From Prevotella sp. (lineage in GTDB: Bacteria > Bacteroidota > Bacteroidia > Bacteroidales > Bacteroidaceae), in assembly GCA_051875605.1 (NCBI GenBank), contig JBJEHA010000013.1:3648-67647 (forward strand): 64,000 nucleotides of DNA, given 5' to 3'. The position numbers and the translations under genes are program-made. Below are positions 4,669-60,032 of this stretch, piece after piece (position 1 is the first letter of the stretch; each line of letters begins with the position of its first letter). Under the pieces are notes generated by a model, which was given only the letters and a program-made list of their open reading frames with translations, was not told the origin of the DNA and did not search any database.

Positions 4669-4737
4669 CAAAAAATCATGGATAATATGCTGGAACAGGA
4701 CGAAAAATATACAGGAATCAGAATGGATTGATTTTGA

Positions 4738-5279
4738 CAAATTGTCAGAATTTTGTATATTTTCGTGACACTTTGATTTTTTGGCCATTTATGGATAATC
4801 ATGCGAGAGTGGAATTTTGTGCACCAGCGGAATTTTTGGGTTCCGGAGAGCTGTTTTGTAAACCATTGATAATCAATGGAATAAGTTTTTACATCCGGAA
4901 AGTGTTAACAAAAATCACCCGATTTTAACCTAAAATCCGTTAAATTCGTGCACAAAACAGCCAGTTTGTGCAGTTTTCAGTCCCCTTTTTTCGCACTTTT
5001 GGCCGGAAAATTGCGGTTTTGGGGTAGAAAAACCTGAGTTTTTGCCCCGAAACAGTTAAGTTTTTCCTCAAAAACACTTAAGTGCCGGATCGAAAATAGT
5101 TAACTAATTTTCTGGAAACAGTTAAGTGTTTCCCCCCTAACACTTAACTAATTTTTCCGTTTTGTGCAAAAAACCGACAATTCACACTTATTAACATGAA
5201 AACCAACCTAAAACCACCTGTTTTTCAAGACCACAAAAAATCAAAGTGTCACGAAAAAGCCAGTTTTCGTGACACTTTG
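4738..5279 (+). repeat. 542-bp dispersed intergenic element, copy 1
   Basis: End modules at 4738-4775 and 5242-5279; TTAA boxes at 5056/5078/5100/5122/5144; colinear with five other copies. Confidence 0.95.
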
Positions 5280-5339
5280 ATTTTAGGTAAACCATTCTCC
5301 TGTGCTTCATTCAGCAGGCTCATGCCGTTCCTGCACAGG

Positions 5340-6257
5340 TCAATATACACGCAGGGTATCGCCCACCCGTATCTGATAATAAGGTTCAAGATGATTTTTC
5401 TTGTACAGGCTTTTCAGTCGCATACCGTAACGTTGCGCGATGGAGTACATGCTTTCGCCTTCCTTGACCACATGTGGCCGTTTCTTGAACGCCTTGTCGG
5501 CCTTGCTACGCTTCTTTTTCAGATATACCACTTCGCCCTCGTTGAGTACATCCTTCCTGTTGCGTTCGTTGTAGCGTGCAATCTTCCGGTAGGATATGCC
5601 CACCTCCTTGCCGATGGAGCGGAACGTATCACCTTTGCGTGCTACGAGATAATAGTTGTCGTTGTAGCGGTAGATGGAATGCAACGTCTGTCCCTTGGCC
5701 GGCGTGTCGGTAGAAGAGTGATGGGCCAGGAATTTGTCATAGCTGGTTGCCCTGTCGTATTTCTGTAGCCCGTAGAGTTCAATGATTTCGATGAGCTTGT
5801 CGGCATAGCGCGGATTGGTGGCGTAACCACATCGCTTCAGCCCCACAGCCCACCCCTTGTAGTCGGTGCGTTTCAGGTTGAACAGCGAGGCATACCTGCC
5901 CGAAGTGGCCAGGAAGCGGCTATGGTCCTCATAGCTTTCCAGTACAGTATTGTATGCGCGGAAGCATTCCTGCCGTGCATCGTCGTCATGATAGGTCTTC
6001 CTGCCTGTCCACCCATGGCATTTTATGCCGAAGTGGTTATTGCCCTTCGTGGCCAGTTCACTTCTGCCAGCGGCACTCTCAAGCAGTCCCTGGGCCAGGG
6101 TTATGCTGGCGGGAATGTTATAGCGCAACATCTGTGAAATGGCAAGGTCCTTGTATTGGTCAATGTAGTTGAGATAAGCTGTATTCTGACGCAACTGCGC
6201 CTTTACGACGACTGTAGCCGTCAGGGTGAGCAGACAAAAAAGCAAACGTTTGATCAT
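5340..6257 (-). CDS. GH73 glucosaminidase with LysM domains (peptidoglycan hydrolase)
   Basis: Signal peptide; SITLAQGLLESAAG, NNHFGIKC and GYATNPRYA motifs; two C-terminal LysM-like repeats (ARKGDTFRSI, VKEGESMYSIAQRYG). Confidence 0.88.
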   Translation of the reverse strand: MIKRLLFCLLTLTATVVVKAQLRQNTAYLNYIDQYKDLAISQMLRYNIPASITLAQGLLESAAGRSELATKGNNHFGIKCHGWTGRKTYHDDDARQECFRAYNTVLESYEDHSRFLATSGRYASLFNLKRTDYKGWAVGLKRCGYATNPRYADKLIEIIELYGLQKYDRATSYDKFLAHHSSTDTPAKGQTLHSIYRYNDNYYLVARKGDTFRSIGKEVGISYRKIARYNERNRKDVLNEGEVVYLKKKRSKADKAFKKRPHVVKEGESMYSIAQRYGMRLKSLYKKNHLEPYYQIRVGDTLRVY

Positions 6258-12490: not shown

Positions 12491-13384
12491 TCATTTCGTG
12501 ACTGCCTTGTCGGCATCAGCTTTATCCTTGTCTTTTCCCTTCATCCTGCTTTCCACGCTGGTATAGATGTAGTAATTGACAAGCATCACCCACATCAGCA
12601 CATAGGCCATAAGAAAGCCCACCGCAACCGAAACCGCAGCTTCCAGCAGACAGAAGTTCTCCGGCAGTCCGGACGCATCGCCGAGTGCCATGCCGAGTGC
12701 GTTTGACTGTTCTGCCAGAATGAGCACGTGTAGCGGCAAACCCAGGACTATGATAATGGGCACCAGGACAATGAGGGTGACGAACACGGTGATGAACATG
12801 AATCCTGCATATCGCCATGCCATGCGGTAGGGACGGCCGAACACTTCACGGATGGAGACATTCTCCTCCACGACATAGCGCATGCCGGTATAGACCAAAG
12901 GCAGGCATGCCATGCAGAAAACCAGCAGGTCTGCAGTGCTGATGGCCAGCATGCCCGTCAAGGTTGCAGGAACCCATTTCAGCAGCCCGGTCAACAGACT
13001 GCAGATGCCGATGTTCAGCAGTACATAGACCAGCCAGAGTGCAACATAGATGCCCGCAAGCTTCAGGTTGTGCATGTAGAGCTGTTTCAGACTGCCACCC
13101 CTCAGCAGCATGACAAAGCGCGTGGACAGCCAACACAGTACCAGGATGCCCGCGATGGCGGAAAGCACCGACAGTACCAGGGGCACGAAAATGGCAGATG
13201 GCTTCGCGTGGAAGTCCACCTCCGGAATCATATAGGCCAGACCATTGAGCAGTGCAAACGCAAGAGCGGCTGTCCATGTGTTCCGGGTGATGACGCCGAA
13301 ATTATCGCAGAACGTCAGAAAGGCACTTTTCAGGCAGGCTGAAAAACTGCGTACCTTGAACAATTCTTTATCTATCATATTCAT
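12491..13384 (-). CDS. Hypothetical integral membrane protein
   Basis: Five to six hydrophobic segments; its start overlaps the stop of the upstream methyltransferase. Confidence 0.65.
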   Translation of the reverse strand: MNMIDKELFKVRSFSACLKSAFLTFCDNFGVITRNTWTAALAFALLNGLAYMIPEVDFHAKPSAIFVPLVLSVLSAIAGILVLCWLSTRFVMLLRGGSLKQLYMHNLKLAGIYVALWLVYVLLNIGICSLLTGLLKWVPATLTGMLAISTADLLVFCMACLPLVYTGMRYVVEENVSIREVFGRPYRMAWRYAGFMFITVFVTLIVLVPIIIVLGLPLHVLILAEQSNALGMALGDASGLPENFCLLEAAVSVAVGFLMAYVLMWVMLVNYYIYTSVESRMKGKDKDKADADKAVTK

Positions 13385-14145
13385 ATTATTGTTTGTTTTC
13401 TGAATTCAGCGCAAACCACAGCCGTGGCTATGGCTACATTGAGGCTCTCTGCACATGTCGTTTCCTGTTGATAACAAGGTATATAGAGCCTCCGGTTCAC
13501 GCGTTTCCTTATGTCTTCAGATATGCCGTTGCCCTCATTTCCCATCACTATCATGCCGTGATGCGTGAGCTGCTGCGCATAGATGTTCTCGCCATCGAGC
13601 AGCGTGCCATAAACCGGATAGCCATCGGGCAAGCGGTCGATGAATGCGGACAGGTCTGTGTAGCACAGCCTCACGCGTGCTATGCTTCCCATGGTGGCCT
13701 GCACCACTTTCGGATTATATTGGTCGGCACAATCCGGGCTGCACACTATGGTATCGATGCCGAACCAGTCAGCCACCCGGATGATTGTGCCGAGATTGCC
13801 GGGATCCTGCACCCCGTCAAGAGCCAGGCAAAGGCGGTGCTCCACATCGGCTGCTGACAGGCTGGCTGACGGCTGACGGAAAACGGCGATTACCTGTTGC
13901 GGATGTTGCAGGAAACTTACCTTGCGCAGGGTTTCCTCATCCACCTCATACAATTCCGTGTCTTCAGGCAGTCTTTTCCCCACCGGTTGCCATTGGGATG
14001 TAGCAGCAACAAGTACGGGCACCAAGCCATGGTCAAGCAGGTCGCCCACCACTTTCGGCCCTTCCGCCACGAACACCCCTTCCGCCCTCCGGTTCTTCTT
14101 CAGTTCGAGTGAACGGATGTATTTTATCTTGTTCTTACTGAGCAT
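13381..14145 (-). CDS. TrmH/SpoU family RNA methyltransferase
   Basis: SpoU motifs LDGVQDPGNLGTIIR, GNEGNGIS, ESLNVAIA. Confidence 0.9.
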   Translation of the reverse strand: MLSKNKIKYIRSLELKKNRRAEGVFVAEGPKVVGDLLDHGLVPVLVAATSQWQPVGKRLPEDTELYEVDEETLRKVSFLQHPQQVIAVFRQPSASLSAADVEHRLCLALDGVQDPGNLGTIIRVADWFGIDTIVCSPDCADQYNPKVVQATMGSIARVRLCYTDLSAFIDRLPDGYPVYGTLLDGENIYAQQLTHHGMIVMGNEGNGISEDIRKRVNRRLYIPCYQQETTCAESLNVAIATAVVCAEFRKQTII

Positions 14146-14248: not shown

Positions 14249-14790
14249 CAAAGTGTCAGATTTTTAACACTTTTGCTTACATTTTGATTTTCCAGCCATT
14301 TCTGAAGATTCGGAGGGAACCTGGTTTTTGCGCGCCAACGATTTTTTTTGATTTTGGACGGCTGTTTTGTAAATCATTGATAGTCAATGAGATGATTTTT
14401 TAAAGACCGGGAGTGTTAAAGAAAATCGTCCGATTTTAACATAAAATCCGTTAAATTTATGCACAAAATGCGCGGTTTGTGCAGTTTTCAGCCCCCTTTT
14501 TTCGTACTTTTGGCTGGAAAATCGCGGTTTTGGGGCCGAAAAACCTGAGTTTTTGCCCCGAAACAGTTAAGTTTTTCCTCAAAAACACTTAAGTGCCGGA
14601 ACGAAAATAGTTAACTAATTTTCTGGAAACAGTTAAGTGTTCCCCCCCTAACACTTAACTGATTTTTCCGTTTTGTGCAAAAAACCGACATTTTGCACTT
14701 GTTAACATGAAAATCGGCTCAAAACCGCCTGTTTTTCAAGACCCCGAAAAATCAAAGTGTAAGCAAAAACGTTAAAATTCTGACACTTTG
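14249..14790 (+). repeat. 542-bp dispersed intergenic element, copy 2
   Basis: End modules at 14249-14286 and 14753-14790; first TTAA box at 14567 (offset 319, as in copy 1). Confidence 0.95.
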
Positions 14791-15003: not shown

Positions 15004-16941
15004 ATGATTTCAGTAGAAGGATTGAAGGTGGAGTTCGGCATCAAACCGCTGTTTGCCGATGCCTCATTCGTGGTCAACGACCATGACCGCATAGCCCTTG
15101 TGGGAAAGAACGGCGCAGGAAAGTCCACCCTTTTGAAGATACTCAACGGTTCGCAACAGCCTACAGCCGGCAGCGTTTCCGCATCAACCGGCACCACCAT
15201 AGGCTATCTGCCGCAGGTCATGAAGCTTCAGGACGACACCACCGTGCGCGAGGAGGCACGCAAGGCCTTTGCCGATACCACAAGGATGAAGGAACGCATA
15301 GACCGCATGAACCAGGAGCTGGCCGAACGCACCGACTATGAGAGCGGGGAATATCTGGCACTGGTGGAGAGGTTCACCGCAGAGCATGAGCGTTACATGA
15401 TGATGGGCGGGGAAAGTTATGAAGCCGAGATTGAGCGCACGCTGATAGGCCTGGGATTCGTGAAGACAGACTTCGACCGCCCTACAAGCGAGTTCAGCGG
15501 TGGCTGGCGCATGCGCATAGAGCTGGCCAAGATACTGCTGCGCAAGCCAGACGTGCTGCTGCTTGACGAGCCCACCAACCACCTCGACATAGAAAGCATA
15601 CAGTGGCTGGAGCGGTTTCTGGCCCAGGGAAGCAATGCCGTGGTTCTGGTGAGCCATGACCGCGCATTCATCAACAACGTCACCAACAGGACGCTGGAGA
15701 TATCCTGCGGAAAGATCATCGACTACAAGGTGAACTACAACGAATATGTGACCCTGCGCACGGAACGGCGTGAGCAGCAGCTCCGCGCCTATCAGAACCA
15801 GCAGAAGGAAATAGCTGACATCAAGGATTTCATAGAACGTTTCCGCTATAAGCCCACAAAGGCCGTACAGGTGCAGAGCCGCATAAAGCAACTGGAGAAA
15901 ATCGTGCCGATAGAGATTGACGAGGTGGACAACTCCGCGCTCCACCTGAAGTTCCCCCCTTGCCTGCGCAGCGGTGACTACCCGCTCATCTGCGATGAGC
16001 TGGGAAAGACCTATGGTGCTCACAAGGTGTTCGGACATGCCACGTTCACCCTGAAGCGCGGCGAGAAGGTGGCCTTCGTGGGCAAGAACGGTGAAGGCAA
16101 ATCGACATTGGTGAAATGTATCATGGACGAAATACCATATACAGGTACGCTGAAGTTGGGACACAACGTGCAGATCGGCTATTTCGCGCAGAACCAGGCT
16201 CAGCTGCTGGACGAGCGGCTCACCGTGTTCCAGACCATCGACAATGTGGCCACGGGAGATGTGCGCATGCGCATCAACGACATCCTGGGCGCCTTCATGT
16301 TCGGCGGCGAGGCATCGGAAAAACCCGTGAAGGTGCTGAGCGGTGGCGAACGCAGCCGGCTGGCCATGATTCAGCTGCTGCTCAAACCGGTGAACTTCCT
16401 GATACTGGACGAGCCGACCAATCATCTGGACATGCCTTCAAAGGATGTGCTGAAAGAGGCCATAAAGGCATTCGACGGAACAGCCATCATCGTGAGCCAT
16501 GACCGTGAATTCCTTGACGGGCTGGTGAGCAAGGTCTATGAGTTCGGCCAGGGCAGGGTAAAGGAACACCTGGGAGGCATCTACGACTTCCTGCGCTCAC
16601 AGGACCAGACCATCGACGAAAGGCTCTCCATGGCTTCACCTGTACAGTCCAAGGTCCAGCCTCAGAAAGCCGAGGAGGCAGCCACCGGGAAGCAGTCGTA
16701 TGAGGAACGGAAGGAAATGCAGCGGCGCAGGAACCGGCTTGAAAAAGCCGTAAAGGAAAGCGAAAGGAAGATCGAGTCGATGGAGAACAGGCTCAAGGAA
16801 CTGGATGCCATACTCTGCCAGCCCGAGAACGCATCGGACATGGAAATCATTACAGAATACACCTCCACCAAACGGTGTCTGGACAAGGAGGTGGAAAACT
16901 GGGAAAAGCTGAGCGAGGAACTGGAAAATACCACAGCATAG
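15004..16941 (+). CDS. ABC-F family ATP-binding protein
   Basis: Two ABC cassettes (GKNGAGKST/FSGGWRMR and GKNGEGKST/LSGGERSR, each with DEPTNHLD), no transmembrane segments, C-terminal coiled coil. Confidence 0.9.
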   Translation: MISVEGLKVEFGIKPLFADASFVVNDHDRIALVGKNGAGKSTLLKILNGSQQPTAGSVSASTGTTIGYLPQVMKLQDDTTVREEARKAFADTTRMKERIDRMNQELAERTDYESGEYLALVERFTAEHERYMMMGGESYEAEIERTLIGLGFVKTDFDRPTSEFSGGWRMRIELAKILLRKPDVLLLDEPTNHLDIESIQWLERFLAQGSNAVVLVSHDRAFINNVTNRTLEISCGKIIDYKVNYNEYVTLRTERREQQLRAYQNQQKEIADIKDFIERFRYKPTKAVQVQSRIKQLEKIVPIEIDEVDNSALHLKFPPCLRSGDYPLICDELGKTYGAHKVFGHATFTLKRGEKVAFVGKNGEGKSTLVKCIMDEIPYTGTLKLGHNVQIGYFAQNQAQLLDERLTVFQTIDNVATGDVRMRINDILGAFMFGGEASEKPVKVLSGGERSRLAMIQLLLKPVNFLILDEPTNHLDMPSKDVLKEAIKAFDGTAIIVSHDREFLDGLVSKVYEFGQGRVKEHLGGIYDFLRSQDQTIDERLSMASPVQSKVQPQKAEEAATGKQSYEERKEMQRRRNRLEKAVKESERKIESMENRLKELDAILCQPENASDMEIITEYTSTKRCLDKEVENWEKLSEELENTTA

Positions 16942-25593: not shown

Positions 25594-26134
25594 CAAAGTG
25601 TCAGGATTTTAACACTTTTGCTTACACTTTGATTTTTCGGCATTCGTAAAAGCGGCCAGTTTTGGGTCGATTTTCATGTTAATAAGTGTGAATCGTCAGT
25701 TTTTTGCACAAAACGGGAAAATCAGTTAAGTGTTAGGGGGGAAACACTTAACTGTTTCCAGAAAATTAGTTAACTATTTTCGATCCGGCACTTAAGTGTT
25801 TTTGAGGTAAAACTTAACTGTTTCGGGGCAAAAACTCAGGTTTTTCGGCCTCAAAACCGCGATTTTCCGGCCAAAAGTGCGGAAAATGGGGGCTGAAAAC
25901 TGCACAAACTGGCTTTTTTGTGCACGAATTTAACGGATTTTAGGTTAAAATTGTGCGGTTTTTGTTAACACTTCGCATCAGTAAAAAATATACCATTGAT
26001 TATCAATGGTTTACAAAACAGGCCTCCGAAACCTGGAATTTACGCTGGCGCAAAAAAATCCGAATTCGCCGGATTCTACAGAAATGGTCGAAAAATCAAA
26101 GTGTAAGCAAAAATGTTAAAAAACTGACATTGTG
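25594..26134 (-). repeat. 541-bp dispersed intergenic element, copy 3 (reverse orientation)
   Basis: End modules at 25594-25631 and 26097-26134; one 1-nt deletion relative to the other copies between offsets 142 and 165. Confidence 0.95.
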
Positions 26135-36430: not shown

Positions 36431-36624
36431 TTCTTGTTATAAATAAAATATGATGTTTTGGTTTTGTTCTCTTATCCTCTGCAAAATTACTGATTTTCCG
36501 CGAAATGATAAAACAATCGGACAAGAAAACGTGCTTTTGAAGCCAGAAATAGCCATTGAAAGACAACTCTCTGTCAGAAATACGATGAAAGGAGTTTGGG
36601 CGGAACAGAGAAATGTGTTTTTGA

Positions 36625-37166
36625 CAAATTGTCACATTTTCGTTCATTTCTGTGACACTTTGATTTTTCAGGATTATGAAAAAAAGGCGGTTTGAGGCTG
36701 ATTTTCATGTTAATAAGTGTGAATTGTCGGATTTTTGCACAAAACGGGAAAATTAGTTAAGTGTTAGGGGGGAAACACTTAACTGTTTCCGGAAAATTAG
36801 TTAACTGTTTTCGTTCCGGCACTTAAGTGTTTTTGAGGAAAAACTTAACTGTTTCGGGGCAAAAACTCAGGTTTTTCGGCCTCAAAACCGTGATTTTCCA
36901 GCCAAAAGTGTGGAAAAAGGGGGTTGAAAATTGCACAAATCGCGTGTTTTGTGCGTAAATTTAACGGATTTTAGGTTAAAATTGGACGGTTTTTATTAAC
37001 ACTTTCCGTCCATAAAAACTTATCTTATTGATTATCAACGGTTTTCAAAAAAGGTCTCTGAAACCGAGAAATTCCGCTGGCGTTCAAAAATACACTTCCG
37101 TCTGATTCTTCAGAAATGGCCGGAAAATCAAAGTGTAAGCAAAAGTGTTAAAAAAATGACACTTTG
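36625..37166 (-). repeat. 542-bp dispersed intergenic element, copy 4 (reverse orientation)
   Basis: End modules at 36625-36662 and 37129-37166; first TTAA box at offset 319. Confidence 0.95.
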
Positions 37167-46478: not shown

Positions 46479-47020
46479 CAAAATGTCAGAATTTTGACGT
46501 TTTTTGTGACACTTTGATTTTCGGGCCATTTATGAAGATTTGGGCGAGAACGGATTTTTATGCGCCAGCGGAAAATTCCGGTTTTGGAAGACTAATTTGT
46601 AAACCATTGATAATCAACGGGATAAGTTTTTACAATCACAAAGTGTTAACAAAAACCGCCCGATTTTAACCTAAAATCCGTTAAATTCGTGCACAAAACG
46701 CGCGATTTGTGCAGTTTTCAGCCCCCATTTTCCGCACTTTTGGCCGGAAAATCGCGGTTTTGAGGCCGAAAAACCTGAGTTTTTGCCCCAAAACAGTTAA
46801 GTTTTTCCTCAAAAACACTTAAGTGCCAAGACGAAAATAGTTAACTAATTTTTCGGAAACAGTTAAGTGTTTCCCCCCTAACACTTAACTGATTTTTCCG
46901 TTTTGTGCAAAAAACCGGCAATTCACACTTATTAACGTGAAAATCGGTCAAAAACAGCCCGTTTTTCAGCACTCAGAAAAATCAAAGTGTCAGCAAAACC
47001 GTTAAAAATTTGACACTTTG
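46479..47020 (+). repeat. 542-bp dispersed intergenic element, copy 5
   Basis: End modules at 46479-46516 and 46983-47020; first TTAA box at 46797 (offset 319). Confidence 0.95.
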
Positions 47021-47107: not shown

Positions 47108-47127
47108 CAGCGGCTTGCAAAATGCAA

Positions 47128-47245
47128 GCTAAAGGGGTGCCCGCTGTGGCGGGCTGAGATCAGACCCTCTGACCTGATCCGGGTAATGCCGGCGTAGGGA
47201 TTTGGCAAAACATAAAAAGTGCCCCTTTTTGTGTATTCTTTTTTT
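47128..47245 (+). ncRNA. TPP (thi-box) riboswitch with terminator-type expression platform
   Basis: P1 GCTAAA/TTTGGC (47128-47133/47201-47206); GGGGTGC...GCTGAGA...ACCTGATCCGGGTAATGCCGGCGTAGGGA core; hairpin ACATAAAAAG/CTTTTTGTGT (47210-47234) plus a T-rich tract. Confidence 0.92.
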
Positions 47246-59490: not shown

Positions 59491-60032
59491 CAAAATGTCA
59501 GATTTTCAGCCGATTTTGTGACACTTTGATTTTTCGCGGTCTTATAAAAAAGACTATTTTGGCCGGATTTTCATGTTAATAAGTGTAAATTACCGGTTTT
59601 TTGTACAAAATGGAAAAATCAGTTAAGTGTTAGGGGGGAAACACTTAACTGTTTCCAGAAAATTAGTTAACTATTTTTGTTCCGGCACTTAAGTGTTTTT
59701 GAGGCAAAACTTAACTGTTTCGGGGCAAAAACCTATGTTTTTCGGCCTCAAAACCGCGTTTTTCCGACCAAAAGTGCGGAAAAAGGGGGCTGAAAACTGC
59801 ACAAATCACGAGTTTTGTGCATGAATTTAACGGATTTTAGGTTAAAATCGGACGCTTTTTGTTAACACTTCACACCCATAAAAAACTACCCCATTGATTA
59901 TCAACGGTTTACAAAACAAGTCTCTAAAACCCAAAAAATACGCTGGCACGTAATAATCCGATCTCGCCCGACTCTTCAGAAATGGCCAGAAAATCAAAGT
60001 GTAAGCAATTGTGTTAAAAAACTGACACTTTG
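59491..60032 (-). repeat. 542-bp dispersed intergenic element, copy 6 (reverse orientation)
   Basis: End modules at 59491-59528 and 59995-60032; first TTAA box at offset 319. Confidence 0.95.

Follow-up and report, generated by a model that had tools for sequence, protein, structure and literature searches.

A 38-bp inverted-box module as the shared end-piece of non-coding interspersed elements in an uncultured Prevotella

What might be the function of a 38-bp module that stands with fixed geometry at both ends of a repeated non-coding element, and what kind of molecule would read it? The question is raised by positions 14249-14286 of the stretch of DNA analysed here, a window of 64,000 nucleotides (C13:3648-67647 of the assembly) from an uncultured Prevotella whose metagenome-assembled genome (MAG) is fragmented (2.83 Mb, 95 contigs, 50% G+C, 95% complete). 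At this place two inverted 10-bp boxes enclose an 18-bp spacer and form the left (L) end of a 542-bp element, the right (R) end of which carries a second such module. A superfamily of non-coding interspersed elements has this module as its common end-piece, and the 542-bp family has not been described before; nothing resembling the module or the element family was detected in Rfam, in plasmid and phage collections or in the searchable literature. We favour, with about an even chance of being right, the reading that the module is a cis-acting end-binding platform of a family resembling miniature transposable elements with inverted repeats (MITEs) and bacterial interspersed mosaic elements (BIMEs), read by a putative trans-acting protein.

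Occurrence and architecture of the module

The preliminary description had proposed that all 12 ends in the window fit one two-box pattern with a spacer of 18 bp, and this was borne out. A search with the pattern CAAAGTGTCA-N18-TKACACTTTG, allowing up to two mismatches, returned 12 matches in the window and none in 100 shuffles, and these matches pair as both ends of six copies of 541-542 bp with interior orientations + + - - + - (Table 1). Genome-wide, 274 modules were counted with two mismatches per box; with one mismatch per box, the boxes were 18 bp apart in 216 of 222 pairs, 19 bp in five and 16 bp in one, so that the spacer does not vary freely in length. Modules were 504 bp from each other in 71 and 505 bp in 13 of 92 paired copies, with rare element length variants of +10, +21, +31, -4 and +34; the 48.0 helical turns that the preliminary description gave for this distance, and with them the proposed phasing of the two ends, are a matter of arithmetic. 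Because indels per bp are, by our arithmetic, no rarer in the spacer (6/(222x18)) than in the whole element (21/(92x504)), the exact 18 bp is real yet not special to the module, the whole element being globally poor in indels. About 6% of the ends, namely 18 ends with the outer box in direct orientation (D-type, see below), do not fit the pattern.

The 542-bp element is present in roughly 130-180 copies, or about 3% of the genome, and some 125 interiors were retrieved by blastn (median identity 85%). In the 92 paired full copies, the modules are terminal inverted repeats of a short, non-coding, high-copy unit in which no long open reading frame (ORF) and no Rfam family was detected, and about 60 contig ends of the assembly stop within the repeat.

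The module is a family of architectures made from one 10-bp box. Most of the 263 modules of 38 bp that were typed are T-type (181), with the form CAAAGTGTCAG-WTTTT-TAACNN-TTTTGC-TTACACTTTG; 42 are mixed, T-rich on both sides of a G+C-rich hexamer; 26 are S-type, perfect 16+6+16 palindromes of the form CAAAGTGTCAC-GAAAA-N6-TTTTC-GTGACACTTTG; and 14 have other forms. The 18 further, D-type ends (control, 0) read ...AAAAAT-TGA-CAAAGTGTCA-AAAA, their outer unit being a 13-bp dyad, TGACA-AAG-TGTCA, that can be taken either way round. At two window ends (4735-4775 and 36622-36662) the outer unit is the fully palindromic 13-bp TGACAAATTGTCA, which leaves the orientation of the outer box ambiguous there. 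The T-type hexamer consists of TAAC, itself part of a further box, plus two free bases, and since the inner box TTACAC-TTTG recurs, offset by 12 bp, as TAACAC+TTTTG, there are three boxes in a T-type module. The nine hexamers listed in the preliminary description are all present in the window, and its account of the spacer as a T-tract, a variable hexamer and a T-tract holds in part: the two T-tracts are those of the T-type and mixed forms, whereas S-type reads A-tract, loop, T-tract, and the hexamer is freely variable in the S-type and mixed forms but fixed as TAAC+NN in T-type.

Conservation, folding and the elements bounded by the module

Along the module, the majority fraction was 0.95-0.96 in the boxes, 0.85-0.91 in the inner tract, 0.75-0.80 in the outer tract and 0.68-0.79 in the hexamer; outside it, the corresponding values were 0.75-0.85 in the adjacent arms and 0.95 in the element core. 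The outer tract is nearly always of the form A^kT^(5-k), of which all four ordered types occur: 86 of 90 mixed A/T pentamers were without a TpA step, against 11.2 expected. Tracts of the form A(n)T(n) resemble A-tracts in their behaviour, unlike those of the form T(n)A(n); we therefore take the avoidance of TpA to mean that the A-tract-like geometry (of the groove) is constrained, and not the identity of the bases. AAGTGT/ACACTT is the most frequent hexamer in the 542-bp consensus, with 10 sites, compared with about 0.26 expected, by our arithmetic, for a random hexamer counted on both strands.

The S-type and T-type forms differed in both folding and covariation. S-type DNA, flanked by AAAAT/ATTTT, folds at -21 to -25 kcal/mol (z about -11), as compared with -6.1 kcal/mol (z -2.1) for the T-type module at 14249-14286. 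Among 40 S-type modules picked by hand from the source genome and others, 95.9% of the arm positions pair, a value matched by 0 of 500 shuffles, and compensatory changes occur at 8 of 16 pairs (53 cells); the hand-picking inflates the percentage paired but not the existence of the compensatory changes. In the T-type set (44 ends, likewise hand-picked), changes at positions 3-5 of the outer box are uncompensated, C.T is constant at position 9/30, and the pairing is equalled in 482 of 500 shuffles, so that there is no hairpin covariation; in the full T-type set the C.T mismatch was present in 160 of 181 modules, and a median of 10 of 16 arm positions pair. Since the S-type arms covary and fold strongly and those of T-type do not covary and fold weakly, the S-type palindrome was maintained as a hairpin, or through hairpin-templated repair, and the majority form as duplex sequence. 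As T-type modules keep their boxes, length and TpA-free spacers, recognition of the duplex by a protein is indicated. The earlier proposal of a dimer-binding or crossover site is supported in part: the module behaves as a duplex-read site with two symmetric boxes at a fixed distance, but a crossover in the hexamer is not supported.

The same module bounds unrelated interiors and is thus a common denominator of different elements, which is our main argument for regarding it as their cis-acting site. In the source genome, S-type ends are also found on 563-576-bp variants and on a family of 784-816 bp that has three direct repeats of 22 bp; in the Prevotellaceae MAG S34M_St_53, with 36 S-type palindromes, these bound unrelated non-coding elements, about 380-580 bp long. 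When one genome per species was scanned, S-type palindromes turned up in several Prevotella, Prevotellaceae, Bacteroidaceae and Paludibacteraceae MAGs, and six in an Oscillospiraceae MAG; most of those in other genomes lie 3-100 bp past a stop codon, and the T-type inner half TTTTGCTTACACTTTG is exactly the right arm of palindromes found there. The 542-bp family was present in 0 of 400 same-genus genomes, three of which have 2-3 solo palindromes, and is specific to the source species.

The core of the 784-816-bp family (C11:19160-19955, C29:52317-53100) is made of three copies of the direct repeat GTGAACACTATATTYCACGSC, and the family shares the dyads TTGATWATCAA and TGCACA...TGTGCA; in one case the end of a copy lies 35 bp past a tyrosine recombinase gene, which is followed by a susC-like gene. 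In the Oscillospiraceae MAG and in one Prevotella MAG, AAA-ATPase_like and PDDEXK_9 genes lie 5-620 bp from S-type palindromes (L061:1632-7085, L051:6205-7791, L039:2345-3940), with three paralogues in a row in the first of these loci. They were rejected as the partner enzyme, the source genome having no such genes.

A possible history of the module starts from a single 10-bp box, CAAAGTGTMA (core AAGTGT / TGTCA), set between A/T tracts. The ancestral form may have been the S-type perfect palindrome, with 16-bp arms and a 6-nt loop, sited after stop codons in Prevotellaceae/Bacteroidales and also bounding unrelated non-coding elements of 380-800 bp. In the 542-bp family this hairpin repeat would have been remodelled into the non-hairpin T-type site of fixed length, composed of an outer inverted box, an A^kT^(5-k) tract, a second box TAACACTTTTG and a third box TTACACTTTG 12 bp further in. 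A protein that moved the elements, and may still organise them, would read the boxes on duplex DNA; rigid A-tract-like spacers would set the geometry of the boxes, and the central hexamer would be a remnant of the loop or part of a box rather than a strand-exchange overlap. Given about 10 occurrences of AAGTGT over the length of the element, one and the same protein probably reads both its ends and its interior.

Placement, mobility and rival explanations

Gene calls for context and spacing were crude greedy ORFs on a fragmented MAG whose contigs break inside the repeat. On this basis, the neighbouring genes are divergent for 34 of 88 copies (background 14%), tandem for 43 and convergent for 11, and the elements face 5' gene ends 111 times against 65 times for 3' ends. 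Copies avoid one another, with 3 of 107 within-contig spacings below 6 kb compared with 40.9 +/- 4.4 for random intergenic placement (0 of 2000 runs were as low). The intergenic DNA of the source genome is a mosaic of at least three repeat families. The F1 repeat, which is REPIN-like, is formed by an inverted pair of GTGCGGGCGGGACGCCCACACCCCCAG sequences with about 58 bp between them and numbers about 120 arms in the genome; it is often found beyond the R end of the 542-bp element, at a distance of 11 or about 50 bp. The F2 repeat, which carries the hairpin CCCTCCCCGGGGAGGG, adjoins the element at 22 flanks, mostly on the L side (e.g. C95:11561, C6:41300). At C30:70048-73824, a 1258-aa methyltransferase-like ORF has several in-frame F1 copies and a RAYT-like Y1/HUH domain flanked by F1 arms.

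The suggestion that the hexamer is a crossover overlap could not be sustained. The two ends carried the same hexamer in direct orientation in 0 of 87 copies, and identity in inverted orientation (17/87) was at the chance level (13.7 expected); the 10-bp boxes are 18 bp apart, and 16-bp arms, which would leave a 6-bp centre, are complementary only in S-type. In 6-10 other samples with identical flanking proteins, copies 1, 2 and 4 occupy the same sites as here, and where the interior was readable (copies 2 and 4, three contigs) its orientation was the same as here. Tyrosine-recombinase crossover in the hexamer is thus unsupported, with hexamers unshared, boxes 18 rather than 6-8 bp apart, no linked recombinase and interiors uninverted. 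Homogenisation within copies, for which matching inner halves had been adduced, was weak overall (z 2.5; mean identity 31.41 of 38, compared with 30.90 for shuffled partners) and traceable to the outer tract alone (z 3.5), the values for the inner halves, z 1.1 and 1.5, being non-significant. Five copies had identical ends (0.6 expected). One of them, C30:129824-130365, has perfect inverted flanks of at least 60-90 bp running into F1 on both sides, about 2 kb from the contig end, and this inverted duplication may be an assembly fold-back.

Exchange between copies is suggested at copy 4, which differs from contig k141_908836 of ERZ27279456 at 41 of 542 positions, clustered in a 175-bp patch (36931-37106), against 5 differences in 1,760 bp of flank; unless the assembly produced the patch, it suggests that copies underwent gene conversion. 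In one contig of another sample (L006:2140-2900), the left junction of copy 2 is joined via the element to the F1-bearing right flank of copy C76:20701, reflecting either recombination between copies or a chimeric contig. A genome scan for solo modules, expected to reveal empty sites, did not do so, most apparent solos belonging either to full copies with a D-type or degenerate other end or to the ends of 784-816-bp elements; it was mainly other genomes that had solo palindromes after stop codons, and palindromes of the form T-tract / N6 / A-tract, as products of deletion resembling solo long terminal repeats, were not found in the genome. At 80 related loci synteny is kept and the intergenic DNA is unalignable at the insertion point, so no orthologous empty site was recovered.

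Several observations weigh against a mobile family with ends bound by a protein, whose binding to the boxes is a prediction. The outer box is more variable than the inner one and can lie in either orientation, both of which would be unexpected at a transposon tip that is cleaved. Target-site duplications of 2-10 bp were not found above the shuffled-partner control, and the outer flanks (AAAAT at 99 ends, TTTT(R) at 75) are independent between L and R (27/26/15/14). No boxes were found near the three Y1_Tnp genes of the genome, nor at the ends of its four tyrosine-recombinase-like genes and its sole Mu-like DDE+ATPase pair; a transposase or recombinase bearing boxes at its ends was not found in the 95%-complete MAG, an absence that is no proof, and no element longer than 816 bp is bounded by modules in the genome. 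Mobility is deduced rather than directly seen, as there was no insertion polymorphism at three loci in 6-10 samples.

Other results on target and partner can be added. Copy flanks had no 2-bp repeat, and the L flank is dimorphic (55 A-type, 33 T-type). In one case an F1 linker without the element showed that ...AGAAAT belongs to the flank and not to the element. Duplication of a whole palindromic target, with the 38-bp module as a long target-site duplication, was rejected because the loops at the two ends differ. A RAYT or IS605 TnpA partner was likewise rejected, there being no boxes near these genes and the RAYT-like one being flanked by F1 instead, and no module pair in the genome encloses a gene able to move the element.

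The module could act in RNA or single-stranded DNA as a hairpin, that is, as a bidirectional intrinsic terminator or mRNA-end hairpin of the kind of repetitive extragenic palindromes (REPs), and would insulate the element or be a substrate of HUH/Y1-type enzymes. We consider this unlikely. It would account for the strong folding and arm covariation of the S-type modules and for the position of most S-type palindromes of other genomes after stop codons, and in the window a terminator-like signal was called on the minus strand for the S-type end 5238-5283, which lies 57 bp past the stop codon of a glucosaminidase/LysM gene (5340-6257, minus; 57-60 bp for the module at 5242-5279, whose DNA hairpin has -21.3 kcal/mol, z -11.7). 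The lack of target duplication would also fit Y1-type transposition; however, the Y1 transposase genes of the genome have no nearby boxes, the left end shows no constant target tetranucleotide, and no Rfam match was obtained. The T-type majority, with its fixed C.T, no covariation and weak folding, and the preference for 5' gene ends speak against a hairpin role more generally, and a terminator role is a good fit for S-type only. Host architecture offers another account, which we hold to be similarly unlikely: the modules would be sites of a nucleoid-associated or bridging protein and, together with the bent, AAGTGT-rich interior, would mark domain boundaries or loop anchors, and mobility would be merely historical. 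The mutual avoidance of copies, the conservation of boxes, core and length while the arms diverge, the occupancy fixed across samples, the A-tract-like spacer geometry and the enrichment between divergent genes are all compatible with this. Target immunity in transposition, or selection against recombination between copies close to each other, could equally have produced the even spacing, which itself rests, like the gene calls, on the fragmented assembly; no candidate protein was found, and because the element is absent from the 400 same-genus genomes, it is not a conserved housekeeping device.

A tyrosine-recombinase core site, whose ends would synapse at a 6-bp overlap and give inversion, excision or integration, with T-type as a hybrid similar to attL/attR, appears very improbable. 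The 16+6+16 layout does resemble lox/FRT/dif-type sites, the T-type can be read as a hybrid of an outer CAAAGTGTCAG arm and an inner CAAAGTGTAAGC arm, each known as a full palindrome elsewhere, the outer tract is the only part with significant within-copy concordance, and target duplication is lacking. In addition to the unshared hexamers and the constant orientation of copies 2 and 4, though, the TAAC of T-type belongs itself to an inverted repeat, and integration would require about 130 pre-existing box-bearing targets where relatives have 0-6. The tyrosine recombinase gene that ends 35 bp from a variant element at C11 was rejected as partner, given its susC-type context and an adjacency at chance level (we estimate that one such case is expected with about 45% probability for four recombinase-like genes). 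It is also conceivable, although we think it improbable, that the end modules and the internal AAGTGT array are landing sites of a bridging or domain-forming protein, so that a mobile element would have been domesticated as a chromosome organiser, with copies at least about 6 kb apart and ends that clamp a strongly bent 466-bp core.

The module is the one feature common to several otherwise unrelated Prevotellaceae non-coding repeat families, and for that reason a handle for finding the protein that spreads or uses them. The repeats sit mainly in promoter-side intergenic DNA beside housekeeping genes of an abundant gut or rumen lineage; owing to this position, their share of the genome and the contig breaks that they cause, they affect MAG quality and possibly gene regulation. 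The series of S-type, mixed, T-type and D-type forms would represent a hairpin repeat turned into a duplex protein site while keeping boxes, length and groove geometry, in a mobile-looking family with non-random spacing for which neither target duplication nor partner enzyme was found.

The window copies and the relation of the module to known systems

Table 1 Copies of the 542-bp element and their end modules in the window
Feature	Coordinates	Orientation	Pattern match start	Architecture or context
Copy 1 element	4738-5279	+		
Copy 1 L module	4735-4775		4738	Mixed; hexamer TGTATA, inner half TTTTCG-TGACACTTTG; preceding TGA completes TGACAAATTGTCA
Copy 1 R module	5242-5279		5242	S-type perfect 16+6+16 palindrome CAAAGTGTCACGAAAA-AGCCAG-TTTTCGTGACACTTTG
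Copy 2 element	14249-14790	+		542 bp, non-coding
Copy 2 L module	14249-14286		14249	T-type, CAAAGTGTCA GATTTT TAACAC TTTTGC TTACATTTTG; 1 mismatch
Copy 2 R module	14753-14790		14753	T-type; hexamer TAACGT, read from outside inwards
Copy 3 element	25594-26134	-		541 bp
Copy 3 R module	25594-25631		25594	T-type
Copy 3 L module	26097-26134		26097	T-type; outer box variant CACAATGTCA, uncompensated in inner box
Copy 4 element	36625-37166	-		Between pyrophosphate-phosphofructokinase and acyltransferase
Copy 4 R module	36622-36662		36625	Mixed; hexamer CGTTCA; outer unit TGACAAATTGTCA
Copy 4 L module	37129-37166		37129	T-type
Copy 5 element	46479-47020	+		Between Omp85-family gene and thiamine pyrophosphate (TPP) riboswitch
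Copy 5 L module	46479-46516		46479	Mixed; hexamer TGACGT
Copy 5 R module	46983-47020		46983	Hexamer TAACGG, inner box TGACAC
Copy 6 element	59491-60032	-		53 bp from MatE gene start codon
Copy 6 R module	59491-59528		59491	Mixed; hexamer CAGCCG, reverse-complementary to CGGCTG, the usual S-type loop
Copy 6 L module	59995-60032		59995	T-type

The window genes that flank the copies are housekeeping genes. Copy 2 lies between divergent genes for a SpoU methylase (13381-14145, minus) and an ABC-F ATPase (15004-16941, plus), and copy 5 just upstream of a riboswitch-controlled operon, as the TPP riboswitch (47123-47218, 75 bits), which precedes a TonB-dependent receptor gene, begins 102 bp past its right end. 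In the L module of copy 1, positions 4734-4763 match the sigma-70 consensus in 11 of 12 positions (TTGACA-16-TATATT) and point into the element; this consensus is not of the Bacteroidetes type, and because Bacteroidetes promoters are of another type, the match probably has no meaning. No outward or inward promoter of the Bacteroidetes type (TAnnTTTG) was found in the element consensus.

Several known systems share single features with the module. Like the core sites of tyrosine recombinases (loxP, FRT, dif/pdif, attC), it has inverted arms around a variable centre, and an element with inverted sites on both sides is reminiscent of pdif modules on Acinetobacter plasmids; unlike in those sites, the boxes are 18 bp apart, partner hexamers are unshared, no recombinase is linked, and neither inversion nor excision was observed. 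With the ends of multi-site transposons subject to target immunity (Tn3 with its 38-bp inverted repeat, Mu, Tn7, Tn402), it has in common an end of about 38 bp, the same box at the ends and inside, and copies that avoid each other's neighbourhood. There is, however, no 5-bp duplication, the Mu-like DDE+ATPase pair is without boxes, and the module sequence is unrelated to the Tn3 inverted repeat. Palindrome-associated elements derived from IS200/IS605 (PATE) likewise make no duplication, but the elements here have a dimorphic left flank, mostly non-hairpin ends and no matching TnpA. As for intrinsic terminators, S-type modules have the stable stem-loop, the T run and a gene upstream, whereas T-type modules fold weakly and are mostly near 5' gene ends.

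The nearest known kinds are REP/BIME mosaics and MITEs, although defining features of each are missing. With MITEs (Correia/NEMIS, RUP and the Porphyromonas gingivalis MITEs of PMC4596501), the 542-bp elements share a non-coding nature, terminal inverted repeats, intergenic position and high copy number in one lineage; they differ in being without target-site duplication and without a parent insertion sequence bearing the same ends, in having a 38-bp end made of an inverted-box pair plus a third box, in a length and core far better conserved than those of a decaying MITE, and in copies at least about 6 kb apart. REPs fall into two superfamilies defined by GTAG or CGTC tags (PMC3733652), whereas the modules have neither tag and read CAAAG...CTTTG; no RAYT is flanked by modules, as would be the case in REPIN-RAYT systems, and most modules are paired ends of a 542-bp unit that have mostly lost the ability to form a hairpin. 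The description of a REP as an extragenic repeated palindrome of 20-40 bp thus applies to S-type only (26 here and 36 in S34M_St_53). These S-type modules, 38-bp extragenic palindromes with a variable loop and often at gene 3' ends, are nonetheless close to the REP/BIME/REPIN-RAYT systems of Proteobacteria, in line with which the modules combine with F1 and F2 repeats in mosaics and the family is lineage-specific, vertically inherited and fixed across strains.

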